Below are positions 30,142 through 50,800 of a stretch of 64,000 nucleotides of DNA, one piece after another. The DNA comes from a virus. Under the pieces are notes generated by a model, which saw only the letters and a program-made list of their open reading frames with translations, was not told where the DNA came from and ran no database searches. The DNA is taken from UHGV virus genome UHGV-1352914. One strand, given 5' to 3'. The translations under genes and the position numbers were made by a program. Within the stretch, counting starts at the first letter, position 1; every line of letters starts with the position of its first letter.

Positions 30142-31191
30142 ATGAAAGCCGAAGATTTAGGTTGTCCTTTCTGCAAACACCATAACCTCCCGGAATCCAC
30201 GGAACCCTGTGCATCCTGTGACATGTATTTCAGTAACTATGAACCAATGGATACCGTGGATACCGTGGATACCGTGGATACCGTGGATACCGGGTTTCAC
30301 CGGAGTTGCTCCCACTGCATCTACCGTAAAACCCCGCTGACGCAATTCCCCTGCATGAAATGTGCCGTCACTCCCGGACTTCCCTGCTACGCCACGGATT
30401 ACCCGTGGGTAGAAGAGGAAAAGGAAGGTGAGCAGTTGCCGGAATCCATGACCCCTTGTACGAGTTGCAAGCACGCGAAAGAGGCCAAGGAAGGAGAGCA
30501 GTTGCCGGAATCCGTGGATGAACCCGTAAGCTATGTTCTCCCCTCCTGTGATGATTGCAGGTATTTGACGAGACGGCTGGAAGAGGAACCCTGCCTCTCC
30601 TGCTACAAAGCTTCGAACTTCACTATCATCAAGGAACCCGTGGATGGCACGGATGAGAATGATGATGTCATTGAACCTTGCAATAGTTGTGTCCATAGGG
30701 ATAACCTCCGTTGCAATCCTCCATGCTCTCATTGCCGACAGGAGCGGGGAATTGAGTACCCGGAATATGAAGAGGATGAGCAGGGAATAGATTGCCCGGA
30801 ATATGAAGAGGCTGAACCGGGAATAGATTGCCCAGAATATGAAGAGGATGAACCGGGAATAGATTGCCCGGAATATGAGGACAAGGCTTCTGGGTACAAA
30901 GGAATCGTGCCAAAGCATATTACCGATATGTTTATTGAACGAATGAGGGAAAATGTACTACGGCTCGCCGACGAATATAACTCCTGCCCCCGCCCCCGTT
31001 ACTGCCCGTATTGTGGAGAAGTGCCGGAGGTCGTAGAGGAAACCATCTACCCCGGAGAAAAGCATTGCTACGTTGTCTGCAATGGAGCCAATCTCCTTCC
31101 TCATAGCATCAGCGTTCATGGCAGGAGCCGGGAAGAAGCGGTCGCCAACTGGAATAGCTTCGCCTTATCTCTGGCCAATAAAGGAAAATGA
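30142..31191 (+). CDS. Cys-rich multi-zinc-ribbon protein with C-terminal Lar-like domain and internal tandem repeats
   Basis: ORF-track start 30073 is non-ATG; ATG 30142 (MKAEDLGCPFC). >=7 CxxC pairs; (DTV)4; 3x 'IDCPEYEE[DA]EPG'; C-terminus 'CPYCGEVPEV...HCYVVCNGANL...SREEAVANWNSFA' Lar-like. Confidence 0.5.
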   Translation: MKAEDLGCPFCKHHNLPESTEPCASCDMYFSNYEPMDTVDTVDTVDTVDTGFHRSCSHCIYRKTPLTQFPCMKCAVTPGLPCYATDYPWVEEEKEGEQLPESMTPCTSCKHAKEAKEGEQLPESVDEPVSYVLPSCDDCRYLTRRLEEEPCLSCYKASNFTIIKEPVDGTDENDDVIEPCNSCVHRDNLRCNPPCSHCRQERGIEYPEYEEDEQGIDCPEYEEAEPGIDCPEYEEDEPGIDCPEYEDKASGYKGIVPKHITDMFIERMRENVLRLADEYNSCPRPRYCPYCGEVPEVVEETIYPGEKHCYVVCNGANLLPHSISVHGRSREEAVANWNSFALSLANKGK

Positions 31192-31292
31192 GCAACCACT
31201 GGATAACCATTAGCGGGGGAGGATTCGTCCTCCCCATTAACTCCATTCTAGTCATGGATGAAGAACTCGCCGCATAACTTACAATCAAAGAC

Positions 31293-31382
31293 ATGTACAC
31301 ATTAACTGGATTCCTTCTCGGCCTTTTATTCTACTACCTCGTCGAGAACAACGATAACGACAACGACCCTATCCCTGCATGA
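31293..31382 (+). CDS. Small hydrophobic peptide (29 aa), stop overlaps next ATG (ATGA)
   Basis: MYTLTGFLLGLLFYYLVENNDNDNDPIPA; coupling geometry supports reality. Confidence 0.3.
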   Translation: MYTLTGFLLGLLFYYLVENNDNDNDPIPA

Positions 31383-31855
31383 AAATAAATAGAAGAGGAC
31401 TAATCGTTCATCCCGGCCTGAAGCATCCGAGACGGCCTCGGCATAGTACTCCCCCGGTAAAGAACATCCCGAAGGGCTACATTGCCACCGGGGAGATTGC
31501 CAATAAAATCGGACGCAGTTCCGTATGGGTAATCCACGCCCTGAACCGATTGAAGGTTGAACACGTGCGTTGCGGGCATACCATCTATTGGGAAGGGAAA
31601 GGAGCCGAGGAATATATCGGCACACAAGTGCGGGGATTATATGACAGTATCCCGGAGGGGTATGTTGATGTAGCCACCGCATTGGAGACTACGGGCTTGA
31701 AGTCGCCGGGATACCTAACTACCCTGTTTAAGCGGGGCAAAGTTCAGCGTGTGCGGTATCGTGATGAAAGCGACCCCCGTGGCCGTAGGACACGATTCGC
31801 GTACAAACTGGTTGACTTGTTGTCCCATTTAGGATTAAATGGGGAAGTCCTATGA
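31379..31855 (+). CDS. DNA-binding protein with two HTH (MerR/excisionase-like) repeats
   Basis: 'YIATGEIANKIGRSSVWVIHAL' and 'YVDVATALETTGLKSPGYLTTLFKRGKV'. Confidence 0.45.
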   Translation: MKINRRGLIVHPGLKHPRRPRHSTPPVKNIPKGYIATGEIANKIGRSSVWVIHALNRLKVEHVRCGHTIYWEGKGAEEYIGTQVRGLYDSIPEGYVDVATALETTGLKSPGYLTTLFKRGKVQRVRYRDESDPRGRRTRFAYKLVDLLSHLGLNGEVL

Positions 31856-32205
31856 GAACCACGTATTCTACAACTAGAACCGTACAGAAGGGCCAGAGCA
31901 ATCAACAGGCATTGCTCGGTCTCCTTCTGAACATTGACCTCCTTGACTCCTCCCTTACCGCGGATGGCGTCCGTGTCCTTCTGTACATGCACGCCAACGG
32001 ATTTGAGAAGGAGTACGACAGTCCCTCAATTAGCGAGGGAACTCGCATCCATATATCTTCTCTTTACTACGTCCTGCGCAAGCTGGAAGAGAAAGAATAT
32101 ATCACGTATTCCGGGGTTAGGGGTTCGAGGAAACAAAGCAAGAGCCAATTAACCTCGAAGGGTATCACCTTCTGCCGGGACGTCTTCCGGCCACAAACAA
32201 TCTAA
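31852..32205 (+). CDS. Winged-helix (MarR/PadR-like) transcription regulator
   Basis: 'LLGLLLN...LTADGVRVLLYMHANG...ISSLYYVLRKLEEKEYI'. Confidence 0.45.
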   Translation: MRTTYSTTRTVQKGQSNQQALLGLLLNIDLLDSSLTADGVRVLLYMHANGFEKEYDSPSISEGTRIHISSLYYVLRKLEEKEYITYSGVRGSRKQSKSQLTSKGITFCRDVFRPQTI

Positions 32206-32213
32206 TCAACAGC

Positions 32214-32648
32214 ATGGAAACAAATAATCTCAATGAACAGACGGAAGTCGCGGTCAAGCTCTACAACATGGCCGAACTTTCCACCCCGTGGGACCAGCTC
32301 ACGGCTGACAAGAAGAAGCCCTACATGAATATGGCGGGCAAACTAATCAAGGGAGAGGCTGACATTTTTGCCCAGCTGACGGCGAAGTACTGTGTCCAGC
32401 TTGGCGTACCTAGCAAGTACAAGACCATCATCTCCGGGATTATCAGTGCCGCCCTTGGTGCTTTAGCTATGTTTGGAGCGTTGGGGCAGAGCAGTTGTAC
32501 CTACGCGGATGTGAGTAAGGACCGCGCAGTTATCTGCAATGGCGATGGTTGTGTAATCGTTAGCCCCGGAAGGTTGACGTTTACGCAGGAACAACCTAAG
32601 AGCGAAGTTGCTCCCGTCGTTATCCCCAGCAAGGAATTCTGCAAATAG
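32214..32648 (+). CDS. Hypothetical protein with one TM segment
   Basis: 'IISGIISAALGALAMFGALG'. Confidence 0.45.
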   Translation: METNNLNEQTEVAVKLYNMAELSTPWDQLTADKKKPYMNMAGKLIKGEADIFAQLTAKYCVQLGVPSKYKTIISGIISAALGALAMFGALGQSSCTYADVSKDRAVICNGDGCVIVSPGRLTFTQEQPKSEVAPVVIPSKEFCK

Positions 32649-32650
32649 CT

Positions 32651-33211
32651 ATGGCTCAAGAGTACAGTGAGATTCCACAAGCTCCTGACCTCTTTAATCA
32701 TCCCGTACCCTCGGTTCCCGTGGGTACGGAGATGCTTAATGAGGCCCCGCCGTTTGATTCAATGCCGGACCCGATTGCCCCGGTTTATGGAGAGAGCGAC
32801 ATCGGGGTGTTCCATACCCCTGTGTATAATGACGACCCCCTCATGCGCAACCGGGAAGAGAGCATGTTCTCCGTCGTGTATGACCCCACGGATTCCGGAC
32901 CTAACGCGGCGGTCATGTTTGTGGCTGGGGTTATTGTATCTGGAAGCGCAGTTTTTAACATAGGTGGTGCTCCCGGAAATTTACACCCCGTAGCCAGCGG
33001 AGAAAGGGCACCCCTTGATGATGATATTATATGGTATCTTAACGTCAATAGAGATGATTATGGTCTGTCTATGGTAAGTAGTGTGCCATCGCCGGATGCC
33101 TTCTTTTCTCTTCCCGTAGCTCGAACTCGAAAAGGAACCAACGGGTACATTCAGCAATTACACAGAGGGGCCGTATTCATTGGTTCTGAATTTGTCTTTG
33201 GTCCTGCTTAA
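32651..33211 (+). CDS. Hypothetical protein
   Basis: 186-aa ORF. Confidence 0.45.
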   Translation: MAQEYSEIPQAPDLFNHPVPSVPVGTEMLNEAPPFDSMPDPIAPVYGESDIGVFHTPVYNDDPLMRNREESMFSVVYDPTDSGPNAAVMFVAGVIVSGSAVFNIGGAPGNLHPVASGERAPLDDDIIWYLNVNRDDYGLSMVSSVPSPDAFFSLPVARTRKGTNGYIQQLHRGAVFIGSEFVFGPA

Positions 33212-33223
33212 CCTCCCAAACCC

Positions 33224-33976
33224 ATGACCTACATCTATATATTCACTTACAGAAGAGACCAGCCAGATGCGCTGGAATGTGTACGTTGCACGAGAAAAAC
33301 TCTCCCCCATGCAGTTATTACTGTAGTCGACGATGGAAATTCCCCATGTACGGAAGGCGCAGAAACCCAGTTCCTACAGGCTGGAGCCACACATTATGAG
33401 CAAAGCCAATTTAATCGAAGGGGAAATCTTAACGGTCCCGAATGTGTGCGAGGCATCCTCTCCTACCTAGCACAAAAGGCCGAAGACGAAGACATTGTGA
33501 TAAAGCTAGATTCCGATACTTGTCTCCTTTCTACTGACTGGATTGAAGACATGCTAGCGCAGGGGAAGAGCATGGCTGGATGTAGCTCACGCTATACTAC
33601 ATGGAAGAACATTTACTATATACACGGAACATGTTATGCCATGACGGGGAAGCTGGCAAAGCAAGCATTTCAGAAATCTTTGTCTTGGACAGATTGGTCA
33701 GAAACGGCTCCGGAAGATTTAGAGATATATCGACTGGCTTCCACTATCGTGGGAGAGGAAAACATTCTTAAAGAGTTCCCTTGGACGCCATCGACCCCTT
33801 CGGCAAGATGGACGGCATGGAACTGGGTGAGCTTCACCGTAACTCCGGAAAAGTATAAACACTTTTCGGTGGTCACCTTCGGTATGTTTATGCCCTCCTA
33901 CAAGCCGAGAAGCCTTAGGGCATTAGCCATGAAGGAGTTACGTGAATGTGTCTATCCTTCTGACAATTCAATGTAG
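33224..33976 (+). CDS. Glycosyltransferase family 2-like protein
   Basis: N-terminal 'IYIFTYRR...L..C...VITVVDDGNS' and DxD 'IKLDSDT'. Confidence 0.55.
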   Translation: MTYIYIFTYRRDQPDALECVRCTRKTLPHAVITVVDDGNSPCTEGAETQFLQAGATHYEQSQFNRRGNLNGPECVRGILSYLAQKAEDEDIVIKLDSDTCLLSTDWIEDMLAQGKSMAGCSSRYTTWKNIYYIHGTCYAMTGKLAKQAFQKSLSWTDWSETAPEDLEIYRLASTIVGEENILKEFPWTPSTPSARWTAWNWVSFTVTPEKYKHFSVVTFGMFMPSYKPRSLRALAMKELRECVYPSDNSM

Positions 33977-34026
33977 CAGGACAACTGGCTTATCGATTCC
34001 GTACATCGAAATGTCAGGACGTTAAA

Positions 34027-34083
34027 TCCCACGGAACCCACGGAACCCACGGCCAAATGGCCACAATGGGTTCCGTGGGTTCC
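34027..34083. repeat. Intergenic palindromic array: (CCCACGGAAC)x2.5 ... 17-nt spacer ... GGGTTCCGTGGGTTCCC
   Basis: Seen in sequence; ~50 nt upstream of promoter at 34137. Confidence 0.65.
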
Positions 34084-34136
34084 CTTGTGTCTCGCCCACA
34101 GGCGTGTGCGGCTGTGTCATACCAGTTAAAAATTTC

Positions 34137-34164
34137 TTGACCAGAAGCTTTTCCTGTGTATGAT
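34137..34164 (+). promoter_or_regulatory. sigma70-like promoter TTGACC-N16-TATGAT, leaderless geometry (ATG at 34172)
   Basis: Seen in sequence; ORF-track start 34160 lies inside the -10 hexamer. Confidence 0.55.
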
Positions 34165-34171
34165 AGCGGGC

Positions 34172-34837
34172 ATGGACAACAACTTCCATTATATTATTAG
34201 CGCGTATAACCCTTCCCTCCATTGGCCGGAGAGGGAATCAAACCTAATCCACTACACGGTCAATTATCTTAAATCCCTGAACATTTCCGGCGAGAACGTT
34301 ACCGTCATGTCCGAGGACCTCGGCGTTCTCTCATGGGCCAGAGCGGAGGGGCTGAACGTGGCCCGTGTCCCTGACGCGCCTGACGAGGCTATCCTCTCCA
34401 TCGCCGCAGAGCATGCGGGAAAGAATATCATGGTGCTCGACACCCAATGCCCGGTACGCGAAGCGGACCTCCTTGACGTTATGGCCAGCCAAATTGTCAC
34501 CGAGAAGGATGTCATCTTCATCTCTGCCTACATGGGATTGAAGCGGACGAACGTCGAAGACTACCCAGAATGGACTGGCATCGTTGATGGTAGCGTGTGG
34601 GGGTTCCGGCACGATAGCGACCTTAAGGTCATTAAGAGGATGTGCAATACCTACCTCGTCTATCATGACGCGTTCGCTGGTCACTTCGGGGTGAGCCTCG
34701 ATTACCAGTACGATAAAGATGTACTGGACGTCGCCGTGAAACGCGGCTGGGAAAAGAACGCGAGCACCGCCCCCTGTTCTGCGGATTATCCCCGGCGCGT
34801 ACAAGTTATGGTTGACAAACCTAAACAAAATGTCTAA
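34172..34837 (+). CDS. Hypothetical protein (possibly nucleotidyl-/glycosyl-transferase-like)
   Basis: Start moved to ATG 34172 (MDNNFHY); alpha/beta composition; adjacent to GT2 gene. Confidence 0.4.
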   Translation: MDNNFHYIISAYNPSLHWPERESNLIHYTVNYLKSLNISGENVTVMSEDLGVLSWARAEGLNVARVPDAPDEAILSIAAEHAGKNIMVLDTQCPVREADLLDVMASQIVTEKDVIFISAYMGLKRTNVEDYPEWTGIVDGSVWGFRHDSDLKVIKRMCNTYLVYHDAFAGHFGVSLDYQYDKDVLDVAVKRGWEKNASTAPCSADYPRRVQVMVDKPKQNV

Positions 34838-34851
34838 GCTTTATTCACCAC

Positions 34852-35304
34852 ATGAACACAAATCAATTGTATTTTGACGGGAGCCTTGGTCAGTTCATTC
34901 GCAAGGCTCGATATGAACAGGTAAGCGTAGATGCCTCATTGGAAGTCCAGCATGGAATATCCTCACTTGTCCTCCAGTTTGGCGCAGGATTTAAGGGAGA
35001 CCTCCGATTTAATATCTCCCATGCCTCTGCCCTTCTTGGCAACGTCTCCACGTCAAGCCCCTTTACATGGAAGTTTCAGTTAGCCCAGCTCAATGCCGGG
35101 GGAATACCTGTATGGAAGACGGTCGCGTCTGGCATGACGGCCCCGGAGAAACCCGGAGGCACTGCCGATACCGTTATCCTCCCCACCGACTTCTTTGAAT
35201 TAGACCCTGCCGAATATCCTGCCGGGACCTACTGGATGACTGTTGAGTTCTCTGATACAGTTGACTGGACCCGCACCTTCCCCCTCACACTTCAAATTAT
35301 CTAG
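34852..35304 (+). CDS. Hypothetical beta-rich protein
   Basis: 150 aa. Confidence 0.45.
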   Translation: MNTNQLYFDGSLGQFIRKARYEQVSVDASLEVQHGISSLVLQFGAGFKGDLRFNISHASALLGNVSTSSPFTWKFQLAQLNAGGIPVWKTVASGMTAPEKPGGTADTVILPTDFFELDPAEYPAGTYWMTVEFSDTVDWTRTFPLTLQII

Positions 35305-35306
35305 CC

Positions 35307-35681: not shown

Positions 35682-35686
35682 AACCC

Positions 35687-36196: not shown

Positions 36197-36217
36197 CCCA
36201 AACAATCCAAACCACTT

Positions 36218-36457: not shown

Positions 36458-36460
36458 ACC

Positions 36461-36709: not shown

Positions 36710-36718
36710 ACCAAATCC

Positions 36719-37675: not shown

Positions 37676-37898
37676 AGTCTTCGTCCGATACACGCGGGAT
37701 GAGGCTATCATCCTCTTCAACTATCAGCCCGTTCTCCGCATACCTACCAAGTACCAGCTGGGCGACCAAGAGGTCGATATGTGTGAGGAATTAGTGGACT
37801 GGGCTAATCAAATCGTTGAGGACCTTAACGAGCATGTCATATTACCAGATATAAACAAAACCAAAAACGAAAATGAAAGTAGGACCCGGAAAAGTTAA
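37662..37898 (+). CDS. Paralog 7 (most divergent) of tandem family
   Basis: 78 aa; same length/N-terminal 'MTNDK'; overlapping start. Confidence 0.45.
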   Translation: MTNDKVFVRYTRDEAIILFNYQPVLRIPTKYQLGDQEVDMCEELVDWANQIVEDLNEHVILPDINKTKNENESRTRKS

Positions 37899-38319
37899 GA
37901 CCAGATTTAAGTGCGGCGACGTTGTTCTTCGGATAGATACGGGGAGATGTGGCATGTGTGGGGATAGCATCCCAACAGGGTCTATCCTTCGGGTAGTGTC
38001 CGACGAGGATGTTGCTGGTGTCGTTCGTGTCCAATATCCCCAAGCGGATGATGAAGACGAAGAGATACAGGATGTTATGTGGTACGAAATCGACCACTTA
38101 CCCGCGAAAGCCAAGGTAGAAGAATTCTCGGATGCCGTGAGGGTGTCCATGAATGGGGACGCTATTGCCACCATTCTCACGGACATTGCCACCCCATTGG
38201 GCACTCTTCACTTCGAAAGCTGGGCCAGAGAAATTGCCCAGTCGATGGCGAACATTATTAACCTTCAAATCTCATTGGGGAAGCTAACCTCGGACGGAAT
38301 CAAAGTAGAAAAAAACTAA
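37873..38319 (+). CDS. Hypothetical protein
   Basis: 148 aa; 'G..VV.RID.GRCGMCG'. Confidence 0.45.
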   Translation: MKVGPGKVKTRFKCGDVVLRIDTGRCGMCGDSIPTGSILRVVSDEDVAGVVRVQYPQADDEDEEIQDVMWYEIDHLPAKAKVEEFSDAVRVSMNGDAIATILTDIATPLGTLHFESWAREIAQSMANIINLQISLGKLTSDGIKVEKN

Positions 38320-39083
38320 TGACAAGCAAAAACAAAATTAAGGAAATACAGAAGTGGGCGGGAACTACGCCCGACGGTATCCTTGGTGATAAGACCATTG
38401 ATGCTATATGGAAGAAGATACAACCGGAACCCACGGTTTCCGTGGGACCTATGGACGTCCCGGAAACCACGGGTTCCGTGGGTCCCGTGGAATCCCCGGC
38501 AGAGATTATCCGCAAAGGAATGGCCAAGAAGATTCTCAACATGGAGGACTACAAGATTACAGGTCCCGATTCTCTGCGCGTAACTCGCCTCCCCTCTGGT
38601 GACGGCGGTGGCAAGTGGGAGATTGCAGGTATCTGTGATGGGATTGAACCCAAGGAATTCAATCTAATCAAATCCATGATGGACCGGGGCGACAGGGATG
38701 CGGCATGGGAGGAATGCCTCCGCTATGTTCTCGCCAATACGGAACCGTTGGTTGCCAAGGGAGTTGCAGGATGCTACGCCATTGAGTTCATGCTTCGCGA
38801 CATGACCTTCAACATGGGTGTGGCGGGAACGACTAAGGTTGTCCAGCGCATGCTCGACATTGATATTGACGGCAAGTGGGGGAAAAATACCCAAGCCAAA
38901 TGGACGGACGCCATTCAATCATGGGAGGAAAGCGAAGTCCTCGATATGCTGGACCGCGCTTGTCGTGCCCGCTATTGCTCCATTGTAAGAGCCAATCCGG
39001 TGAAGGCGAAGTTTCTCTCCGGCTGGTCCAACCGATGCAATGCGCGACATGCTTACGCTCTTACTCTGTTGTCAAGGAAATAA
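38319..39083 (+). CDS. Endolysin-like protein with peptidoglycan-binding repeats
   Basis: 'WAGTTPDGILGDKTIDAIWK' and 'IDGKWGKNTQAKW' PG_binding-like repeats; linker 38420-38500 carries CCACGG palindromes. Confidence 0.5.
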   Translation: MTSKNKIKEIQKWAGTTPDGILGDKTIDAIWKKIQPEPTVSVGPMDVPETTGSVGPVESPAEIIRKGMAKKILNMEDYKITGPDSLRVTRLPSGDGGGKWEIAGICDGIEPKEFNLIKSMMDRGDRDAAWEECLRYVLANTEPLVAKGVAGCYAIEFMLRDMTFNMGVAGTTKVVQRMLDIDIDGKWGKNTQAKWTDAIQSWEESEVLDMLDRACRARYCSIVRANPVKAKFLSGWSNRCNARHAYALTLLSRK

Positions 39084-39573: not shown

Positions 39574-40012
39574 TCAATTACAGGAAAGCATCCGTGCGTG
39601 TACTGAAAAAATCCGCTCAAGGAATCGGTTCTATGCCTCCCTTCCTCTTGGTCGCGAGGGTGAGCTGAAACTGCCCAGAAACCAATGGGCCTATTTTTTA
39701 CGGGGGAAAGTAGGAATTCGTTATGACGGAGAAACCCTTACCTCTTCGGTCACACAGGTTAAAACTCGTGAAGAAGTTCAACTGCCAAGAATTATTGATG
39801 CGGAGAGAAGCCATAAATTACTTGTCATACAAGGATATGTTATTGACAGGCGAACGAACCGAACATATTATCGGGGCGAGACAGTAAGTTTTCCGCGGGG
39901 AGAACCAATGCAATTAACGTTGAACGGGCATATTAGCATGATGTGGACACCCCCGCTCCCCGGTGCAATTATGCCGTTCTTTCAATCCAATATACATGGC
40001 TCTGATTCCTAA
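39500..40012 (+). CDS. Hypothetical protein (74-nt overlap with previous ORF)
   Basis: 170-aa ORF; overlap unusual, start uncertain. Confidence 0.35.
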   Translation: MKIFNLFRKSHEQEQLENELTQNLNQLQESIRACTEKIRSRNRFYASLPLGREGELKLPRNQWAYFLRGKVGIRYDGETLTSSVTQVKTREEVQLPRIIDAERSHKLLVIQGYVIDRRTNRTYYRGETVSFPRGEPMQLTLNGHISMMWTPPLPGAIMPFFQSNIHGSDS

Positions 40013-42887
40013 TACCACGGCCTCCACTCCACAGCCTCCGACAATACCCATTGGAACCACGGATTCCTCGTGGCGCAATGGGTTCAGTCCTGACAGGCCA
40101 ATGGGTGAGCCGATAATTAACTTTCCCACTCCGGTGGTAAAAAACGTGATGTTCTTCGTTGAGAGGATTGCCAAGAATCCCAGCGAGATTACCACTGAAT
40201 TGGGAACACCGTTCGTACCTACTGCGGGTACGACCTTCCTCCCGTTCATGCGGGATGCAGTTCTCGTGCATGTCGAACCCGTCAATGAGGCGGCGAGACA
40301 GCACGTTTATCGTTTCTACTACATGGTCCCGCCGGAACAGCAGTTCCGATATAACATTCAGGACATGAAGAAAATCCGTGACGGCTATACCTTAAAGGAC
40401 ACCGTCGCTACGGGTAAGTTCATGGGGCCGGATGCAGACACGGAAGAGTTGAAGGACTTCTACGAGATTACACGGGAATGGGTGGAACCCTTGGATTCCG
40501 CGTATGCCCCGCTTCCCCTTGGCTCGTTTGACCCCAGCAACGAAAAGCTGGACCCTGACTTCTATGACCAGCACTTCTACACGGCCTACGATGCCCAGCT
40601 GGTATTTGAAGAAGTAGTCCAGTTTGAAGAAGAACACCTACGCAAGTATTTTCGTAAGGTGGTACGCGTGTACAAGACCCTGCCCGGCCCGGTGGTTAAA
40701 GAGTTCGTCCCTTATAACATTTGGCAGAAGGGAGATACGGTGTGGGATGAAGGTGGTCCGGGAACGAACCAGCCCGAATCTGAATGGGTGGCACAGACTG
40801 CAATTAAGTTATCGAGAGAGGTCTGGGCCGCGCCGCTTTGGCCCGTCGATGGTGGAGGGAAGGAACCGGGTCAGGCCCGCATTCCTCACATGCCCCTCCT
40901 TGAACTGGACAATAAGCCCGTTAGTGCTGGCTGGGACAAGGGCAGTTATCCGAGTACGCAGATGTACACCCTTGTATCTATGTACAAACGGAACAGTAAC
41001 ATTGCGGAGAAAGAGGAACAGAACAGCCTCTCCGGTAATTGTTGTAACCCGGATTCCCGTTTTGTCCGGTGCATCAATACAACCGTGACGACTAGCCAGT
41101 CCGTCGACTGGACAGCGAACGGCGATGTCCCTGCGATTGACCCTCCTGACCCCGGCGAGAACTGTAGCCAATGGCGTGTAGATTCCTCTGTGGTAGTACA
41201 TGAAGGATATAGCCACAAGGAAACGCGAAAGAGTTGCACCACCTACGACCAGATTGATGAATTCTGGGAATCCTCATTCGATAGGATAACCAATCAGGTC
41301 TATCCTGTACTGCGGAAGATTGTACATAATCCGAGCACTGACTTCGACACCGATTGGCAGAAGGAAGGATTCACCAAATACACGGACGCAGTTGGCAATA
41401 CCTACTATGGCCGGAAGTTGGAGAAGCCTGTTACGCTGGTTCCCGTCACCGTCCCTGACATGAGGTGGACCACTATTGAAAATGTGGAATCTTGGGACCT
41501 GACGGTTCAAGAAGATTCCGTAACTCCTACCGAGATACTGGGCATTCCCTATTTGAACTACGGAATAAGTGACCCTAACTACCCAGAGTACCAAGGTTTT
41601 ATGGGCGTTAGCGGGATTCTTAGTGCTCAACCCAACGGTTCTAACTCTGACAGGGGAGGAAACTTCGGCATCTATTTCCGTGATAAACGATTGTGGAACC
41701 TGTATATTCAGAACAGCTATCCTACAACTTATTCGCCGGGGACCTTCTGGCTTGACTACGCATACTTCTCCGTCAATCCGCAAGGCCCGTGGTACACCGA
41801 AGACGGACAGGTTAAGATAGATATGGAGATGGTTATTCAGTCCACCCTGTATGCCAAAATTGTTACGAACGAAACTTGGACCTTCCCCGTAGGAAACGCC
41901 CAAGGGATTAGCTTCGTTCAACGAGATGCTTCGTATACTTCTGAAATGATGTTCTCCGTAGGGTCGCTTCCTTCCGGGATACAGGGGGCATATCTGGACA
42001 TCCAATATGGGCGGCTTAACCTAGTAGTCATAGCTAATCCCAGAGGGTCTGCAATCAATGGCACTATTCCCATTCTGATTAACGGTGAGAAGGCGTTCGA
42101 CATTGACGTAGAAACCGTGGACCTAGATACGCAAAAGGTTCTTACGGTTCAGAACACCACTGCCGCTAAGCAGGAATACCATGCTGGGGATTATGTTCTC
42201 AATGCGGAGGTAGTCAATAAACTGACGCTATCCTACAGTGGGCAAAAGTTTCCCTATTTCCAATTTAATCTTACCCTGTGCGCACTTACGGGGTCTACCT
42301 TTAAGAAGGTCGCGACAAGTGATAAGATTCAACGCGTCGTCCTGCGCCAATGGGTGAACCCCTGTTACGCCGTAGATAGTTACATGCAGATTCCGGGAAT
42401 CGGGTACTACAAAAAATATACCACGACGATGAACTACAGTTTCCCTGCCGTGTTCGGTTCGGTTAGTTGGGTTCCGTGGGATACGAGGCCCGACCTCTCT
42501 GGCAGACAGGAAGGCAAGTACTTCCCGCAGACCAAGATGATGCGGGACAGTTACTCCGGCCCCTGCACCGCCGTGGTAGAGGAAGCCTTCTCCCCCGATG
42601 GCACATGGCCTAAAGGCTGGGGCCTTGGGACGTCGGTACAGTTCACGACGAACAGCGGGTATTTCTCTTCGCCGCTTTGCGATTACCGTCTGCCCGCATG
42701 CCTCCACGGCCCGCTGACTATATCCGTAACCATTGGCAGTCAGGACGCCAAGTGGCTTCCCGGCGGGTTTAATACAAACTTTCCGGGAACTACCCACACA
42801 GATTGGAAACCCGTGACCTCCTATTACGCATCCCCGTGGAACGGAGGCATGATGTGCAAGAAAGTAACCATTTATCCACCCAGTTAA
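39963..42887 (+). CDS. Large tail protein (nozzle/spike/fibre class, putative)
   Basis: 974 aa, W/Y/G/N-rich beta composition. Confidence 0.5.
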   Translation: MQLCRSFNPIYMALIPNTTASTPQPPTIPIGTTDSSWRNGFSPDRPMGEPIINFPTPVVKNVMFFVERIAKNPSEITTELGTPFVPTAGTTFLPFMRDAVLVHVEPVNEAARQHVYRFYYMVPPEQQFRYNIQDMKKIRDGYTLKDTVATGKFMGPDADTEELKDFYEITREWVEPLDSAYAPLPLGSFDPSNEKLDPDFYDQHFYTAYDAQLVFEEVVQFEEEHLRKYFRKVVRVYKTLPGPVVKEFVPYNIWQKGDTVWDEGGPGTNQPESEWVAQTAIKLSREVWAAPLWPVDGGGKEPGQARIPHMPLLELDNKPVSAGWDKGSYPSTQMYTLVSMYKRNSNIAEKEEQNSLSGNCCNPDSRFVRCINTTVTTSQSVDWTANGDVPAIDPPDPGENCSQWRVDSSVVVHEGYSHKETRKSCTTYDQIDEFWESSFDRITNQVYPVLRKIVHNPSTDFDTDWQKEGFTKYTDAVGNTYYGRKLEKPVTLVPVTVPDMRWTTIENVESWDLTVQEDSVTPTEILGIPYLNYGISDPNYPEYQGFMGVSGILSAQPNGSNSDRGGNFGIYFRDKRLWNLYIQNSYPTTYSPGTFWLDYAYFSVNPQGPWYTEDGQVKIDMEMVIQSTLYAKIVTNETWTFPVGNAQGISFVQRDASYTSEMMFSVGSLPSGIQGAYLDIQYGRLNLVVIANPRGSAINGTIPILINGEKAFDIDVETVDLDTQKVLTVQNTTAAKQEYHAGDYVLNAEVVNKLTLSYSGQKFPYFQFNLTLCALTGSTFKKVATSDKIQRVVLRQWVNPCYAVDSYMQIPGIGYYKKYTTTMNYSFPAVFGSVSWVPWDTRPDLSGRQEGKYFPQTKMMRDSYSGPCTAVVEEAFSPDGTWPKGWGLGTSVQFTTNSGYFSSPLCDYRLPACLHGPLTISVTIGSQDAKWLPGGFNTNFPGTTHTDWKPVTSYYASPWNGGMMCKKVTIYPPS

Positions 42888-42891
42888 TCTC

Positions 42892-43635
42892 ATGGCATTC
42901 ATTACCAAATCCTATTTAACCTATCGCAATGTTTGTGACGAGCTTTGCATGCTCATTACAAACCAGCCGCCGTCCAAGTCCAACGTTGACTTCCGTCGCA
43001 TATTGAAGGAAGCGCAGAACCTCCTGCTGAATGAGGCCACGGTATCCCCGGATTCCGTGGAAACCTTGGACTTTGAAGGAATCCCTCACGGGGGTTCTAT
43101 CTCCCTGCCCGAAGAATATGACAGTATCGTTGAGGCATGGTCGCCCAGCGGCAAGAAATACCACATCATTGACCGGGCCATGTTCGAAAGCAACACGTGG
43201 TTCCGTTCCGAATACCCGAAGCATGACAGTGGCTATCACGCCATCATGCTGGACATGGGACTGAACGAGCAGAACCTCCGCACCTATTCCGTCCTGTCTG
43301 GCAGTAGCGGCATCAACGACAACCCCGCGAGCAACGTCATGACGGTTTCGGCACGGTGCGCATTGCGCGGCCTATCCCTCAACATTTATGATGACGCGGC
43401 ATGGGAAGACAAGGAGGTTCGTATCTACCCCGGATGTCTTCCCGCATTGAAGGCAATGATGCTGGCCGTGGTCTATAATGAGCAGGGCAACACTCAAATG
43501 GGGACGGACAGCTATGGTCTTGCCGTCAAATACCTGAACGACCACCTGCGCAAATATCGTCAGGGTACGTATCAGGCTCCGAATATTATTCAGAACGGCG
43601 GCATCATGCAGTGCCCCGGACTTAACCTCATGTAA
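42892..43635 (+). CDS. Putative virion protein
   Basis: 247 aa. Confidence 0.45.
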   Translation: MAFITKSYLTYRNVCDELCMLITNQPPSKSNVDFRRILKEAQNLLLNEATVSPDSVETLDFEGIPHGGSISLPEEYDSIVEAWSPSGKKYHIIDRAMFESNTWFRSEYPKHDSGYHAIMLDMGLNEQNLRTYSVLSGSSGINDNPASNVMTVSARCALRGLSLNIYDDAAWEDKEVRIYPGCLPALKAMMLAVVYNEQGNTQMGTDSYGLAVKYLNDHLRKYRQGTYQAPNIIQNGGIMQCPGLNLM

Positions 43636-43637
43636 TT

Positions 43638-44765
43638 ATGCCGACCAAAAAGACTGACATATCGAGTGAGACGAGCGCGAGCGGGGGTATCCCCGCCGCC
43701 AAGTCTCTCAAACAGAAGACGATGGACGAGGTGCTTCCGAAGTCGAATCCCAACATCCCTCTCCGTCCCATGAATAACAACGACCCGAACAAGCCTGTCG
43801 ACGCGAAGGAGATGAACACCATCGCCGCGGCCAATAGCAACCACGGGATTAAGAATCCTCCCGCCAGTCCCTACGGGCGGGGGATTACGGAACCAGCAGT
43901 GCCGGGCGCAGTTGACCCTAATAGCGCAAGCTACGCCGCGCGGCAACAAGCGGCATACCAAGCTGGCATGCAACAAGCCGCGGCGGGGAAACTCTCTGCC
44001 GAGGATAGGCTCATGCTTCGGGGAGTTGACCAGAATGTGAGCAGGGGAATGATGCCCACCATTTCTCCTGCGGCATCCACGGTTCCCATGGCAACCGGAC
44101 GTCCCACGGCATCCACGGGAACGACGGCATCCACGGGAACGACGGCATCCACGGGAACGACGGAAGCGGCTCAAAAATATCTGCAAGATAAACTTGGTCC
44201 GGAAGGGTACAAGGTATTCCAGTCTATGCCGAAGGAACAGCAGGAAGCCATATATAGCAAGTACGCCGAGATGGTGACCAAGAATGCGCCAGCCGCTACC
44301 ACGGCGGCATTACCGAAAGGTTCTGCTCCGTCTCCCTCCGCAAACGCACTGCCCTCTGGCAATACTCCCATTCCCACGAGAAGTTCAACCACAAGTGCGC
44401 CCGCCGTGGATACTTCCAACAGTTCCGGTGGCGGGACTGCCGAGTACATGCTTCGAACCCTACAAGATAACACGGCCAGCCCGGAAGCTAGAGCACAGGC
44501 AGGAACATACCTCAAGGTCCGAACCATGTACGCCCAGCCGGAAAAGTATAGCAAGGAAATTAAACTCCTTGAAAAGCTGGAACGGGCTAAAAAAGAGGAA
44601 CTGCGCAACATGTTCAGGAATCGGCTCAACATCCGAGACCCCCGCTTTGCGCGGCAGTACGCGCAGTATCAAGCCCTACAGAAGAAAGACCCGCAAGCAA
44701 GGCTCGCGCTATATTCCGAACTGATGCAAGGTCCGGAGTTCGCCCATTTGGAATTCCGAAAATAA
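43638..44765 (+). CDS. Low-complexity A/Q/P-rich protein with (ASTGTT)3 repeat
   Basis: 375 aa; likely internal/ejection or assembly protein. Confidence 0.45.
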   Translation: MPTKKTDISSETSASGGIPAAKSLKQKTMDEVLPKSNPNIPLRPMNNNDPNKPVDAKEMNTIAAANSNHGIKNPPASPYGRGITEPAVPGAVDPNSASYAARQQAAYQAGMQQAAAGKLSAEDRLMLRGVDQNVSRGMMPTISPAASTVPMATGRPTASTGTTASTGTTASTGTTEAAQKYLQDKLGPEGYKVFQSMPKEQQEAIYSKYAEMVTKNAPAATTAALPKGSAPSPSANALPSGNTPIPTRSSTTSAPAVDTSNSSGGGTAEYMLRTLQDNTASPEARAQAGTYLKVRTMYAQPEKYSKEIKLLEKLERAKKEELRNMFRNRLNIRDPRFARQYAQYQALQKKDPQARLALYSELMQGPEFAHLEFRK

Positions 44766-44788
44766 ATTTGTCATAGTTGATATTTCAC

Positions 44789-44816
44789 TTGACCCTCGCC
44801 CCACTCATGATAGGAT
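44789..44816 (+). promoter_or_regulatory. sigma70-like promoter TTGACC-N16-TAGGAT nested in inverted repeat CCCCACTCATG...CATGAGTGGGG (44798-44842)
   Basis: Seen in sequence. Confidence 0.45.
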
Positions 44817-44868
44817 GTTGAAGACCCACATGAGTGGGGCAAACTTATTAGACTAACACTCAACAAAC

Positions 44869-47800
44869 ATGGCTATCGACTTTAGTACCGCCAATATGTC
44901 CGACTTCGCTCCGACGTCGGCAAGCAGTATCGCGCGTGAACAGCGAGCCGCAGAACGGCACGCCACGTGGCAAGAGACGCAAAAACAGAAACAGGAAGAC
45001 AGAGCACAGAAAGCACTGGACCGCGAGCAAAGGTTAGCGGAAAAGAAACAGACCCGCGCGGAGAAAGCCGCAGGAGCTACCGCGGAGTTTGATGACTATG
45101 TCTTTAAGTCCATTGATGACTTTCAGAAGAAACAGACTGAACAGGCAGACCGCGCACGTAACGTAGAATGGGAAACAAAAAGCCGCGCCCATACGGAACA
45201 AGGATGGAAAACCACCGCGGAAAAGGCTGACATTGATGTCTTGAACAAAGGAAACCGTGGGTTCACCTTTGAGGGAATCGACTACATGAAGGACTATGTA
45301 GACCGCGGAGAAGATGCGCTGGTTGATTTGAAGGCCGCCGCTCGTGGTGATAGTGACGCCATTAAAAAGCTTACGAATAACACGGGCATCGTCGCAGTCT
45401 CTTCCTCCGAACTTTCTCCCCAGCATCCCGCATTCTTATCCCGCTTTGGCTTCGGCATGGGAGAGGACGGGAACCCCGTCGTAACGGAAAAGTTCCTCGC
45501 CATTGCCGCAGACAGAAACCGTAACGCAAAGGCGGTGGCCAAATCCATCGCCAACACAATGGAGAAGGCCCGGAAGGATTACCTCAACTCGCATCTAGAT
45601 GTTGGTACAGGTAAACCTAAAGCAGAAGCCATCGAGACTGCACCCATTGCTTACACTGCGGAGGAAATAGAAAGCATCATCAATACGATTAGGCGCGAAG
45701 ACATTGACAACTATCGTGCCGCTAAGTCTCTCTATACTAAGCACCGAGCCGCTTCGACGGAGAACGTGCAGAAGAAAACCCCCAGCCAGACGAACGTGGG
45801 GGAGCTTGGCGTTGGCGAATTCTCTGATTCAGCACCTTCATTTACTGGGAATGTTTTTGCTGAACTCGCCAACCTCTCTAAGTCTCCCAGCAAAATGTTC
45901 CGGCTTGTCCGCGACTACGGGGATTACCTTTCCCGGAACGGTGATATCTATATCCCCGGGCATCAAACTTCAAAGAAAGAAAAACCTGTTGAGGATAGGA
46001 TTCGTGAACAGATAGAGGCGGCAGACAAAATCGTAAGACGGCTCGAAGAAGACTACACTGGCCTTCCCTACCTCGAACTTCGCGACGCGATTCTCAATCC
46101 GGAAGCCGCGGCCTCTACCCTTCTGTCTTTAGTCCCCAATGCTGACATGGACGCAATACGTGCAAGGGCCGAAGTTCTTGCCAAGGACCTTCGTCGCAAG
46201 AAGGACCGCCCCCTGACCTTCGAGACCGATGAACAGATTGGCATGAGTGAGGCTATACTGGAAGCCGTGGCTACAAGGTTTCCGGGGGTTCCCAAATCCA
46301 CCCTGTACCAAGCGGGAGTAACCAATCTGATTCAGGGTTATGTCGCCAAGGCTACGCCGAGAGGCACTCTCATGGATGCGGTCAATGGTGCAATGGCTAA
46401 CTACCGAAGCACGGCGGGACAAATTGCGGATGTGCTTACCTTCCAACCGGGAGATAGTGTGGGCAAGACCTCTGACCCATTGAGTACGATGGAATGGAGA
46501 AAGGGAACGAGGCGTGGCACATGGGAGTATGGCGTACCGGGGGGTCCCTCTTTTGATGTAGGTCCCGAACGGTTGAAGGAATACATGGCCCAGTACCATA
46601 TCGAAAGTACCCGCGACGCTCTCAACTCCCTCTCCCATGCCGCACGTATGGGTGACTTGGGCGTAGGCCGTGGCAGTCTCTTTGCGTACAATCCGCACAC
46701 CAAGGAAGTAGATACGAATGCCACTCTCGAACTGAACCCCAATGCTCTCTACGACAATAAGCTGATGGACAAGAGCATTGAGGCTCTCCGTGCTAGTGGC
46801 GCGGACGAAGGTCTCATCAATCGCACCATTGAGAAGTTCCAGAACCTCCGCACGAAATCCGCACAGGAACTTGTGAAGGACAACATTGCATTGGATGAAA
46901 CGCTGGGAACGCTCCGTGATACGTGGCTTGGTTCCGGTATGCGGTTCAACCCTGTCTGGACCGAAACCATGAAGCATCTGGACAAGTACCTTTCCTTCAA
47001 GAATTTTTACAACGAACAGAAGGAAGCGGGCAAGAGCGACGAGGACATTCTCTCCGCATGGCAGGAGAAAGGACAGGCTCACATCAATCCTATTCTCCGT
47101 GGGTTCCAGATAGGCACGCACAAGGCCATTGACCTTGGGACAGGGGCCGCCTATGGTGCTCTTCTCTTTGCGCAGAATGCAGTCGGCAGTCGTGCGGCGA
47201 TGGAACATACCCGCACCCTCTGGGACCAGCTGAACAAAAAACAGGAAGCGGAAGCTGAACTTGTTCGAGGCAATATCATTGCAGACTATACTGCGGAAAT
47301 CGCTAACCTCGGCTACCAAATGGTAGCAACCGCGGGGGCTGGTAAAATCGGTGGCCTTGCTGGCCGTGCATTGGAACGTACCGCTCTGACCAAGTTCGCG
47401 AGGGCAATGGCTAACGTCGCGGCGAGGCGGGCAGAAGCTCTTGTCCCTGCCGCCCGTCCGGGATTGGCGGGACGTTTGAGTGGAACTATTCAGCGCAACC
47501 TCAACAACCTTGCGGCGTTGAGCCTCGAACGGGCAGGAGCTGGTGCTGGGGTAAACCTTACCATCATCTCGCAGGTTGCACCGAATGCTTACTCCGACAT
47601 CTTCTATACCATTTATGACAGGGAGATGGAAGGGAAGGAAGCGACTGCCGAGAACACGAACCGGGCACAGAGCATTGCCAGCAGGCATGCCCTCTTTGGT
47701 GCGGCTCTGGTCTCCACTGGCAGTACGCTTATCAACAACCGCGCAGGTATGGATTCCTTCATGCGTAAGGTTGTTGGGGCTAAAAACCTTCGCGGCCAAT

Positions 47801-50800
47801 CTCCAGTCCAAACTCTTGAACAGAAGATGGCCAGATGGAGAAGCAAGCCGTGGGCTGAAATGAATACCAAGGAGAAGACGTTTGCCGTTGCTTCCTATTT
47901 GTACAGCACGAGCATGGCCGCAGTGGAAGGAGCCACCGAAGAACTGGCAGACGAATTCCAAGAGTGGGCATTTACTGAACTGGTGAAGAACGGAGAAATC
48001 TCCGAATCCTCTATTGCCACTACTGACCAAGTGATTAGCGGTGCTATAAAGACTGCTTTCCTTGGGGGTATCGGCGGCTACGTTGGTAGCCAGTTAGCTG
48101 GTGAAGGGAACATACGTTTCCAAACCGAAGCCGCTCCCACCCTTGATGTAAAGGATGCTACTTCCATACTACCGGATATTACGAAAGATGCGAGCAACAT
48201 CATCGAGGAAACGGGCAAAGCCATTACCAAGGATAATGTACCGGAAAGCTTGGTAGAAACCGGAAAGAGGGTTATCGAGATTGCCGGGGAGAAGGGGGAT
48301 GCCGCGGAAGTTGCCCGCGAATGGGTGGACAAATCCATTGCCCATGAAAGTCTGGCAGTCTCCGATGAAACCCGCAAGGCATGGGTGGAAGGCGCAACCC
48401 GTATGGGCATCAGCAATTTCACCCAGTTCCGCAACCTAGTTGAACGGGCCTCCGAAATATATACCTACGAGGGTAGTGCCGCGGCAAGCTCATTCATGGC
48501 AGAAGCCATTAACGACCTGCCCAATACCCTGTCATTCCCAAATAAGGAAAACCTCGACACCATGCGCACCATGCTTTCGGAGGCCCTTGATGCTATGGGA
48601 GACAGGGTTCAGGTTATCGAAGTAGACGACGACCTGTCCATCATTACTACAGGGGACGAGGACCTCGATGCCGCTCTTCACGTCATTAACGGATTGACGG
48701 AACCCACGGCTACCACGGAACCCAAGGAATCCCCGACTACCGCGGAACCCACGGCTACCGCGGAACCCACGGCTACCGCGGAACTCACGGCGCGGAAGGA
48801 GAGGGACCAAGCCATTGCCCCCGTCACTAACATGGTAGATACGGGAGTAGTTACCCCCGAAGCCGTGGAAACCGTGGATACCTTGGATGCCGCCATTACT
48901 TCGTTCGACCCCAACACTGGGGCATGGCTTTCATCCGGTTCACCTCTTGACCGCGGAACCAAGCTCGTCTCCTTGAACGAGATGACCGGGATTAACGCCC
49001 CGCTGGTTACGAGCAACACGGGAGAAACCATTGTCGTCTCTCCGCACGCAAGCATGTACAACATGGGTGAGGGAGGGACACCCAGCACCAAGTGGGGGGA
49101 TAGGGTCTCCGCTCTCAATCTCCCCTCTGACGGGACGGGCGTAAATGCCTACGGCATCCTTTCGGACCTTCGCGTCAAGGCATCTCCTGCACAGGCCGCG
49201 GCCATTGACGGAGTGCTCCGCGCATTGCATGCCGCTGGTTTGGACGTGGCTATCCGAGCCACCAATGCTCCTGCCAATATAGCCTCCCCCGCCAGTATCA
49301 CGTATAAGAACGGAACAGACGGGAAGCTCGTCGGCGGCGTCATTGACCTGTACATGGACCGGGACAATGTGATTGAGAGCGTAACGGGAACAGTACTGCA
49401 TGAGGCCATCCACCTCATTGACCGTCATCTTCGTGCCACTAACGCGGACTACTCCCAGCGGATGGACAAGATTAGAAGCGCAGTTGCGGAGAACTATAAT
49501 CAAATCATTGATAGCCTCACTGCTATGTATGAAGCTAGCGTGGACATCAATGAGATGAATGCCATCGCCGCGCTTGCCTCCGACCTCAACTATGGTCTCC
49601 GTGGCCCGGACGAATTTGCCAGTGTTGCGTTCTCCAATCCTGTCATGAACTTCATGATTGCGGAGGTGAGCGGAGACAATGTAACCCTCACGGATTTGGC
49701 TCGCTATGCCGAAGCGGCTGGGGGCAGGAGACCCGTTCATGTGCGCCTCATTGAATGGCTTAAGGATTTGATTAGGGATGTGCGGCAAACTGCGGACGAC
49801 ATGGATGGAACCACCGCCGCCAAGAATGCGGCTGAATGGGATTCCTATGTGGACCGCGTCGCGGACATAACCCCCGGCAAGTGGTTCGACATGCCTCGCA
49901 CTCCGTCATGGAAAGTAGACGATACGGACTACACCATGAGCCGTGAGGTAGATTATTTTAACCCGTTGGCCTATGAGACCGACATGACCCAAAGACTGTC
50001 CTTCGGTCTGGGCGCAGAGATTATCGGTACGAATGCCGGGAACTGGGTAACCAGTGTTAAGAACGTATGGCAAGGCGTGTCTAAGGGCTGGGACAAAGCT
50101 GGCATCAATGTTAAGTCCGAGGAACAGAAGCTGATTGTGCTGGAACAAATGACCAACGTGAATGCGGCGTATGAACGCAGTATTAAACGCATTGGCAAAA
50201 TCGGCGATATGCTTCAACGCCGTGCGGATAGTCTGGGCTGGGATGCCACGACGCGAAAGAAATGGAGCAAATCCATTCTCGATATGTCGGGGAATATGGA
50301 CAACGATATTGACCCTGAAACTGTTGCACGCATTAACGCAGAGGCCCAAGCAGAAGTTCGCCAGCACGAACAGACCCGCGACTTCCGTATCGCGTTGGCT
50401 AAGAAGACCGTTACCGATGCCGTCAATAGGCACGCGGAAGCGGTGCGTCTGGCCAACTCCCTTGCGCTTAATAGTGAAGGGCGATTGGAAATCAATGAGA
50501 TGATGCGCCGGATTAAAGACATGAGCGTCAAGGGATATGGTGCTATGCTGGACAAGACGGTGGCTCTCCCCATGCTCTCCCAGCAGATTCACAATGTGCT
50601 CTCTGACCTTGGCTCTCGTATCTCCGCGACGGGGGATGCCAATCTGGAAACCACCTACTTTGGCCTCGCCCGTGATACGCAGAACTACCTTGCGGATATG
50701 ATTAACGAGGTGGACAGTCCCTTCTCTATGGATGAACTTCTGGACAGGTGGTCCAACCTTCGCAACGACTACCTCTATGCGGAGAGTACAAACCACCCCG

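Follow-up and report, generated by a model that had tools for sequence, protein, structure and literature searches.

Short tandem repeats serve as operators in the heptad arrays of the omega repressor of pSM19035 and in the met-box arrays of MetJ, to which small repressors bind cooperatively; they also occur as origin elements in P4, whose type I repeats in ori and crr are iterons bound by the alpha primase-helicase, and in lambda, whose origin iterons lie inside gene O where it codes for a linker. Collagen-like Gly-X-Y stretches, in turn, are encoded in the tail and fibre genes of phages by 9-nt periodic repeats prone to length change. Here we describe a family of tandem repeats with the general unit CC-NN-GG-NNN in the virus genome UHGV-1352914, of which 64,000 nt (hereafter the window, corresponding to most of a phage genome of about 70 kb) were analyzed. 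The repeats are found both inside genes and in non-coding DNA, and the best overall explanation, to which we assign a probability of roughly 0.55, is that they are slippage minisatellites derived from one lineage-specific 9-bp unit family, the non-coding members of which are putative cis-acting sites.

An initial annotation had reported CCACGG-based tandem repeats in linker-coding parts of four unrelated genes, and had proposed selection at the DNA level, with binding sites, contingency repeats or recombination hotspots as possible functions. The four arrays are indeed present at the places indicated and the four genes do carry the core, as the endolysin linker does the two palindromes assigned to it (CCCACGGTTTCCGTGGG at 38430-38446 and CCACGGGTTCCGTGG at 38467-38481). 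The first array had nonetheless been read as four copies of the 10-nt GGATACCGTG, a misreading, as Tandem Repeats Finder (TRF) gives a 9-nt unit repeated five times at 30248-30292; periods of 9 and 18 nt recur with the core in the window and in its relatives. The list was also incomplete, missing the genic arrays at 3935, 43037, 48859, 54155, 58304 and 62085 and the non-coding ones at 320, 2232 and 34029. The arrays located inside open reading frames (ORFs) are:

3935-3959, plus strand: TCCACGGAT x2.3 followed by CCGGGG (STDSTDSG), in ORF 3317-6208 (primase-helicase, N-terminal part)
30248-30292, plus strand: TGGATACCG x5.0 with a CCGTGG core, 100% identical units by TRF, encoding M-DTV-DTV-DTV-DTV-DT
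38424-38499, plus strand: imperfect 36-nt x2.1 array of direct and inverted CCACGG/CCGTGG 9-mers
43037-43069, plus strand: four-unit CCNNGGNNN run (CCACGGTAT CCCCGGATT CCGTGGAAA CCTTGG), in ORF 42892-43635
44077-44163, plus strand: 9/18-nt array ACGGCATCCACGGGAACG x3.2 encoding ASTGTT x3, inside the low-complexity central stretch of the 375-aa ORF 43638-44765
48699-48791, plus strand: mosaic of 9-nt modules (ACG/CCG/GCG/AAG, then GAA/GCT, then CCC/ACC/TCC), at about residue 1277 of the giant ORF
48859-48892, plus strand: GAAACCGTG/CCGTGGATA x3.3 (EAVETVDTLD), in the giant ORF
54155-54183, plus strand: TGGAAGCCG x3.2 (EAVETADAV), close to the C-terminal end of the giant ORF
58304-58332, minus strand: GGAATCCCC GGAACCCAA GGATACCGG GG, in the NAD-dependent DNA ligase
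62085-62103, minus strand: CCCACGGAA x2.1 (PTEPTEA), in ORF 62046-62396

The location in linkers could be substantiated at two of the four loci first reported: in the endolysin-like ORF 38319-39083 (QPEPTVSVGPMDVPETTGSVGPVESPAE) the array lies between a PG_binding_1 match (residues 4-30) and a PG_binding_3/endolysin match (residues 154-248), and the array at 30248-30292 forms the spacer between conserved CxxC motifs of a Cys-rich 372-aa ORF (30073-31191). For the 375-aa and giant proteins, low complexity is the only indication. Matches between units reach 100% in TRF at 30248 (x5), at 44106 (x3.2, an 18-nt unit covering 44106-44163) and at the non-coding 34028 (x2.8), while the giant-ORF mosaic at 48699-48791 is made of 27-nt and 18-nt units (TEPTATTEPKESPTTAEPTATAEPTATA) with a 91% match at 48726. 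The ligase run is read in a different frame, as G-I-P-G-T-Q-G-Y-R-G, i.e., G-x-x. In the DTV array, read on the minus strand, GTATCCACG equals the DnaA box TTATCCACA at 7 of 9 positions, a likeness noted by eye only.

In the window CCACGG/CCGTGG occurs 104 times against 35.5 expected (2.9-fold), a number reached by none of 100 dinucleotide shuffles, and runs of three or more CCNNGGNNN units, expected 0.03 times, account for 16 matches distributed over 11 loci, 3 of these loci being non-coding. Successive core copies are spaced by 9 nt in 13 cases, by 18 nt in four and by 27 nt in two, and every one of the most frequent 7- to 11-mers in the window is contained in GGAACCCACGG, an 11-mer found 10 times at 6 independent loci. 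A Chi-like oriented signal was discarded, the strand counts being equal (about 51 and 53).

The core could be a coincidence arising at the protein level, if acidic Pro/Thr/Ser-rich linkers had been expanded by slippage and the common word merely followed from similar peptides and preferred codons (NCC, ACG before G). The coding copies lie nearly all in one frame (35/46 CCACGG and 31/52 CCGTGG), mostly as xCC-ACG-Gxx or xCC-GTG-Gxx on the sense strand, and ACG is commoner before G (0.35 vs. 0.22), as such a coincidence would have it. However, by our own calculation from codon usage, the chance of xCC followed by ACG or GTG given the peptide is only roughly 0.1 per array, and a synonymous shuffle, in which codons are permuted within genes so that protein sequence and codon usage are kept, yielded only about half the copies (20.4 vs. 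46 observed for CCACGG and 24.8 vs. 52 for CCGTGG, which rank third and fourth of 4096 hexamers). With the arrays removed, 29 and 42 copies were still observed against 16.9 and 22.9 (71 vs. 40), the excess appearing in all three frames. Amino-acid composition and codon usage were thus rejected as a full explanation, in agreement with what the initial annotation had supposed, and so was a general codon-junction preference (NNG before G, after xCC), the frequency outside arrays being 0.126 against a marginal product of 0.148.

The same analyses brought up other words as well: GATTCC is the top sense-strand word in the synonymous shuffle (61 vs. 26), and when arrays are masked the top hexamers under a third-order Markov model are GCTGGG/CCCAGC (72 vs. 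26) and CCAGCT/AGCTGG (62 vs. 27).

The comparison with relatives relied on 31 IMG/VR contigs sharing about 87% amino-acid identity with the window over 33-55 kb (close relatives) and on distant relatives whose ligase is about 50% identical and whose gene order is the same; three sub-lineages are distinguished, namely the window type, the L176 type (46% guanine plus cytosine, GC) and the L153/L156 type. CCACGG/CCGTGG is enriched about 3-fold in 31/31 close relatives, where period 9 dominates the tandem repeats and the core is present in 77/119 period-9 and 27/29 period-18 TRF rows. Arrays also occur in the distant relatives (CCACGG 33 vs. 11 and 22 vs. 8 expected) and in L176, with 5 runs in 13 kb. 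The only isolate match of the window is a short endolysin match to the Akkermansia phage Chantilly, and the cellular ligase matches carrying organism names are mostly to Opitutaceae, at about 30% identity; because of these two matches the host is probably Akkermansia or another member of the Verrucomicrobiota. Chantilly is temperate and unrelated, and hence an imperfect proxy for a host-like sequence; its CCACGG enrichment is 1.7-fold, and its 36.9 kb contain no 9-spaced core pairs and no unit runs. If the host assignment is right, the excess outside the arrays of the window (about 2-fold) is therefore near a host-like baseline, as expected if the core were a matter of peptides and codons, while the arrays, whose absence from Chantilly speaks against such a coincidence, are on the genomes compared peculiar to the present lineage of phages. 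In IMG/VR, the 20-mer GGAACCCACGGAACCCACGG was found in 42 stretches, about 32 of them from this lineage; a scan of genome contigs for (CCACGGNNN)3 gave, among the matches listed, mostly high-GC Actinobacteria and was uninformative on the host.

Units of the same family are also found outside genes, together with promoter-like sites:

320-343: non-coding array CCCCGGATT CCCCGGAGA CCAAGG, just upstream of the promoter-like GTTCCTTATAATCAA (352-366)
2232-2258: non-coding array CCCCGGAAC CCCCGGATT CCACGGATT, upstream of the promoter-like GTTCCTCATAATCAA (2270-2284)
34028-34084: non-coding hairpin whose left arm is (CCCACGGAA) x2.8 and whose right arm is two inverted copies, with a 17-bp stem GGAACCCACGGAACCCA
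34137-34164, plus strand: sigma-70-type promoter-like site with the hexamers TTGACC and TATGAT 16 nt apart, beginning 52 nt after the hairpin

As one CC-NN-GG-NNN family builds the non-coding hairpin, the promoter-side arrays and the coding arrays, the shared core is to be regarded as a trait of the DNA. The hairpin has a predicted RNA fold of -44 kcal/mol (z = -4.8), and about 23 distinct relatives show no change in its arms, although the loop and the left flank vary. Both hexamers of the site at 34137-34164 are conserved in nearly all relatives (TTGACT in L019). The hairpin was considered as an intrinsic terminator and rejected: its tail CUUGUGUCUCG has no U-run after the stem, so that it is not a canonical terminator, and the terminator scan, which found canonical T-run terminators elsewhere in the window (e.g., at 28439 and 1621), does not list it. 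Directly after the hairpin, a 27-nt unit GTTGTGTCATACCCACTAGCGTGTGCG varies from about 0.5 to 2.5 copies among relatives; it is present as 2.5 perfect copies in L003 (16-82), L022 (1205-1271), L027 (946-1012) and L029 (1203-1269), and as about 1.5 diverged copies in the window (34086-34125). The two early arrays precede two exact copies of GTTCCTYATAATCAA (352-366 and 2270-2284), which lack a -35 hexamer and each have CCNNGG 9-mers before them; the first two units of the array at 320-343 are kept in relatives, and the second GTTCCTYATAATCAA copy is invariant in three relatives.

In relatives, an iteron-rich control region lies just to the left of window position 1, and window positions 1-230 are its edge. 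This region (L159 880-1480, L176 2700-3060) contains 8-, 9-, 14-, 17- and 37-nt iteron families, a long inverted repeat and AT-rich stretches, a layout that resembles an origin or operator. In L176 (2840-3000) an inverted repeat of about 36 bp, with arms (TCCACGGTT)x3 and (AAACCGTGG)x4 and a central (CCCACGGAA)x3, stands with an AT-rich stretch beside the iterons, and the same region also holds (TTAAGAAACCTTAACTA)x4; in L159 (1040-1108) a TATAAT element is found beside (CCCCGGTTC)x7, with (GCAATCGG)x4 and two (GGGTTCAAC) arrays after it. A distant relative carries (CCGTGGGAA)x3.3 upstream of a leftward operon. Two independent assemblies of this relative (L153 1-30 and L154 1-30) end inside this intergenic array, perhaps because its copy number is heterogeneous or because an inverted repeat broke the assembly. 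Direct and inverted short repeats in an operator- or iteron-like layout are thus encountered in non-coding DNA at 320, 2232 and 34029 and in L176 and L159, and the non-coding arrays may represent cis-acting sites for a factor of this lineage, whether as iterons of the operator or origin type or as a structural hairpin.

The codons of the genic arrays speak for the same level of cause. Across alleles and lineages CC and GG are fixed and the two central bases and the encoded residues vary. The first residue of the unit can be T, P, A, K, V, L or M in the window and close relatives and additionally E in the distant L156, a chemically diverse set nearly always written with an NNG codon, and the second and third positions remain GNN and NCC in the window and in close and distant relatives. 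Codon identity at conserved residues of the distant relatives is saturated (0.39-0.44 for T and 0.32 for P), and despite this the same position of the giant protein again reads as NCC-ACG-GAA-type repeats (NNG-GNN-NCC); at 54155-54183 the CCNNGG phase is likewise kept in distant relatives with a different NN. A resemblance to Pro/Thr/Ser-rich linkers encoded by variable-number tandem repeats is evident in the head-to-tail identical units, the lengths in multiples of three, the disordered spacers and the turnover among close relatives; here, however, one 9-bp family is common to many unrelated genes, to non-coding DNA and to another reading frame, and the shared unit is not accounted for by protein composition and codon usage. 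The arrays share the 9-nt period of collagen-like Gly-X-Y genes as well, and the ligase run even reads as G-x-x, but most are short (2-7 units) and read x-[E/D/A/G]-[P/T/S/A]. Taken together, these observations make a protein-level coincidence improbable, and it is rather probable that the common core is a property of the lineage at the DNA level, to be ascribed neither to peptide composition, codon usage and codon context nor to the avoidance of restriction sites.

The latter deserves consideration, since the window is nearly devoid of many restriction words: GATC (0 observed vs. 304 expected), CCWGG (5 vs. 152), GAGTC (3 vs. 127), CTCAG (2 vs. 122) and GCWGC (0 vs. 104) are strongly depleted, and CCATGG, CCCGGG, CYCGRG, RGCGCY, GRGCYC, RCCGGY, GGCGGA, CTGCAG and CATATG are near zero. 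If CCATGG, CCWGG and CCCGGG are forbidden, permitted neighbors such as CCACGG/CCGTGG, CCCCGG and CCGCGG might pile up as a by-product. The pattern of CCNNGG words agrees with this, CCATGG (1 vs. 31), CCAGGG (0 vs. 35), CCCAGG (4 vs. 35) and CCCGGG (1 vs. 22) being depleted and only CCACGG/CCGTGG (CCACGG 2.8-fold), CCCCGG (1.7-fold) and CCGCGG (1.7-fold) enriched, and when avoided words were forbidden in the shuffle, frame-0 CCG-TGG (Pro-Trp) was expected 9.1 times instead of 5.1, with 13 observed. The same shuffle nevertheless gave 44.5 copies outside arrays against 71 observed and left the main frame unchanged (10.6 vs. 18 and 12 vs. 21). Moreover, in distant relatives in which CCATGG (13 vs. 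8), CCWGG (58 vs. 52), GAGTC, CTCAG and GGCGGA are not avoided, both a 3-fold CCACGG excess and period-9 arrays with the core persist, so that avoidance, although real, is not the cause; nor does the palindrome avoidance of phages, which the window shares, make periodic arrays or a CCACGG excess. As the main cause it is refuted by these two lines of evidence and hardly credible; it is a minor contributor for the Pro-Trp and His-Gly codon pairs. Sub-lineages are not alike in the words that they avoid, the distant relatives (L152, L153, L154 and L156) avoiding only GATC, GCWGC and few others, and such a sub-lineage-specific profile could help to infer the host restriction systems that each sub-lineage meets.

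As to how the arrays arise, that they are slippage-driven in-frame minisatellites is very probable. Their length is not invariant, as had been anticipated, and the 375-aa linker, the giant-protein linker, the DTV tract and the endolysin linker differ in unit or copy number among relatives. The 375-aa linker ranges from 34 to 49 aa, with ASTGTT, ATPRQA, GSKGSTAS or ASTGSKGS units in one to three copies; the giant-protein linker has 20-32 residues built of 9-nt modules; in place of the DTV tract, relatives have TEP/TES/TQA tracts that differ in length; and some relatives show indels and direct GGAATCCGT x2.2-3.8 arrays in the endolysin spacer. Indels of 9 nt are concentrated at the arrays. The ligase unit series is absent from the distant homologue, the window ligase being longer in that segment. 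All the coding units measure 9, 18, 27 or 36 nt and keep the reading frame, therefore these arrays cannot switch a gene on or off and the contingency function once proposed for them does not hold. Changes in the arrays at 320 and 2232, beside promoter-like elements, might affect promoter spacing. Instability driven by hairpins was ruled out, as the direct arrays do not fold; the array at 38424-38499, with its inverted copies, has a DNA fold of z = -2.2.

Besides slippage, the coding arrays might be maintained as tandem protein-binding sites selected for replication, transcription or DNA organization, residing in linkers because only there the coding constraint is weak. The occurrence of the same units in non-coding arrays of operator- and iteron-like layout, the invariance of CC and GG while NN and the encoded residues change, the constant position of the giant-protein arrays in distant relatives and the equal enrichment of the motif and its reverse complement, as expected of a site in duplex DNA, are all consistent with it. 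On the other hand, arrays are absent from the orthologous linkers of many relatives, the number of units is not maintained, the endolysin-linker palindromes are specific to this genome, the family has no arrays between 4.6 and 30 kb and no candidate binder emerged from about 40 ORFs scanned for DNA-binding domains. Dispersed binding sites were ruled out, since isolated motif sites are not conserved, and with coding arrays lost or replaced in relatives the binding sites proposed in coding DNA are not borne out. Selection on the coding arrays is thus unlikely, and that they are themselves functional sites is equally doubtful.

The known operators and origins offer a partial parallel. The arrays by promoters (320, 2232, 34029, L159 and L176) resemble omega and MetJ operators in their 7-9 bp units, their 2-7 copies and their head-to-tail or inverted arrangement; they differ in the degenerate centre of the 9-bp unit, in the many copies inside genes and in that no ribbon-helix-helix or other DNA-binding protein was found in the scanned ORFs, most of which are matchless. 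With P4 and lambda they share direct and inverted short repeats and an iteron-rich, AT-rich non-coding region (L176 and L159), and the window phage, like P4, encodes a primase-helicase (VapE/D5-type), which has no similarity to P4 alpha in a search of PDB sequences; lambda, moreover, shows that cis sites can be accommodated in DNA that codes for a linker. The present arrays are instead scattered over at least 8 genes and not confined to one initiator gene.

Shared repeats could also act as recombination hotspots at module boundaries, helping related phages to exchange protein domains or gene blocks. The 34-kb hairpin has two unrelated alleles of its left flank, which change over exactly at the array, the 375-aa gene has an identity step at its array (92nd percentile), and the family is mosaic elsewhere, as at 41.4-42.2 kb (53% vs. 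98% identity). Yet 5 of the 6 coding arrays have no such step (38th to 76th percentile) and the strongest mosaic boundaries lie away from arrays, which makes this function, also put forward initially, very unlikely. The sharp mosaic itself falls at 41400-42200 within the 974-aa ORF 39963-42887, where relatives are either about 98% or about 50-55% identical; this suggests an exchanged module, possibly receptor-binding.

Several observations weigh against slippage minisatellites from a single lineage-specific unit family with putative cis-acting non-coding members. About 40% of the in-frame tandem arrays in the window carry no core (e.g., 21518 and 30747), hence slippage is not motif-specific; the units of one array are copies of each other and some arrays may be related, so the independent cases are perhaps 3 to 8; and, among the matches listed, (EPT)n arrays with identical DNA (GAACCCACG)n were found in Streptomyces and other unrelated bacteria, which favors a coincidence at the protein level. 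In many relatives the 375-aa linker has no in-register array, and coding arrays are lost or replaced at some loci. Isolated sites drift synonymously, that at 47097 being kept in 9/26 relatives, that at 49599 in 2/24 and that at 51867 in 0/22, and folding gives no signal for the direct coding arrays (z >= 0). Even in non-coding DNA, the 2232 array is less conserved than its invariant flanks, relatives having CCCCGGAAC CCACGGAAC CCAGAAT CCACGGAAT. Finally, no DNA-binding domain was detected with Pfam and PHROGs in about 40 ORFs, most of which lack any match, so that this is no true negative.

Beyond the arrays, the window encodes a helicase, an exonuclease and, on the minus strand, ThyX, together with:

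3317-6208: VapE-type (VapE/D5-type) primase-helicase
7767-9686: family-A DNA polymerase
13772-15607: large terminase
38319-39083: endolysin-like ORF
44869-54534: giant ORF of 3221 residues
57745-59742, minus strand: NAD-dependent DNA ligase

The giant ORF and the primase-helicase had no useful match among PDB sequences, scans for tRNA genes and Rfam families found none, and nothing relevant to this phage group was found in the literature. A single-sequence AlphaFold model of the endolysin-like ORF was too poor for use (pLDDT 42). The PG_binding_1 match in this ORF begins at residue 4 with profile position 31, therefore the first half of the domain is missing or diverged; ORF 37873-38319, which overlaps it by 1 nt, has no Pfam match. 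ORF 30073-31191 has many CxxC pairs, a weak Lar-like zinc-ribbon C-terminus and, at 30747-30878, a core-less 36-nt x3.7 in-frame repeat of GIDCPEYEEDEP modules, and a further core-less in-frame repeat (18 nt x3.8, DENQND) lies at 21518-21585 in ORF 21239-22468. At 1556-1668 and 1689-1795 there are two tandem small-RNA-like units with sigma-70-type promoters, TTGACT-16-TAGTAT and TTGACA-16-TATAGT (TG) respectively, each followed about 40 nt downstream by a near-identical 14-17-bp hairpin and a T-run; a third similar hairpin is on the minus strand (1177-1144). The ORFs called at 701-1543 and 1598-1879 may be spurious.

In light of these results, the DNA-level cause invoked initially finds support in the non-coding arrays, the array in another frame and the codon pattern at saturation, while the functions proposed with it are not shown. 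Slipped-strand mispairing or unequal recombination would create, and keep remodeling, 9-nt (three-codon) repeats in unconstrained spacers. The arrays would not be independent inventions but members of one lineage-specific CC-NN-GG-NNN family, whose commonest units would be CCACGG or CCGTGG followed by A/G-rich triplets, usually placed in genes as xCC-NNG-Gxx. The same family would form the conserved hairpin near a promoter, the two early promoter-side arrays and the control-region arrays of relatives, and the coding arrays may be copies of this expansion-prone unit that persist only where a change in length is tolerated by the protein. A bolder and tentative possibility, which we hold to be unlikely, is that the unit is a genome-wide cis element whose arrays are cooperatively bound by a putative phage protein at the control region or origin, the early promoters and the 34-kb hairpin, with binding-induced fork stalling or direct selection re-expanding the unit in linker-coding DNA.

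If this last possibility were true, a regulatory or replication site family would live partly in coding sequence, and if the arrays are bound, cis elements of one family would be seen to sit within coding DNA throughout the genome of a phage and would offer a handle on the control of replication and transcription in uncultured gut phages of about 70 kb with a 3200-residue protein. If only a mutational habit is involved, one expansion-prone DNA word would shape the linkers of many proteins and endow them with rapid length variation.

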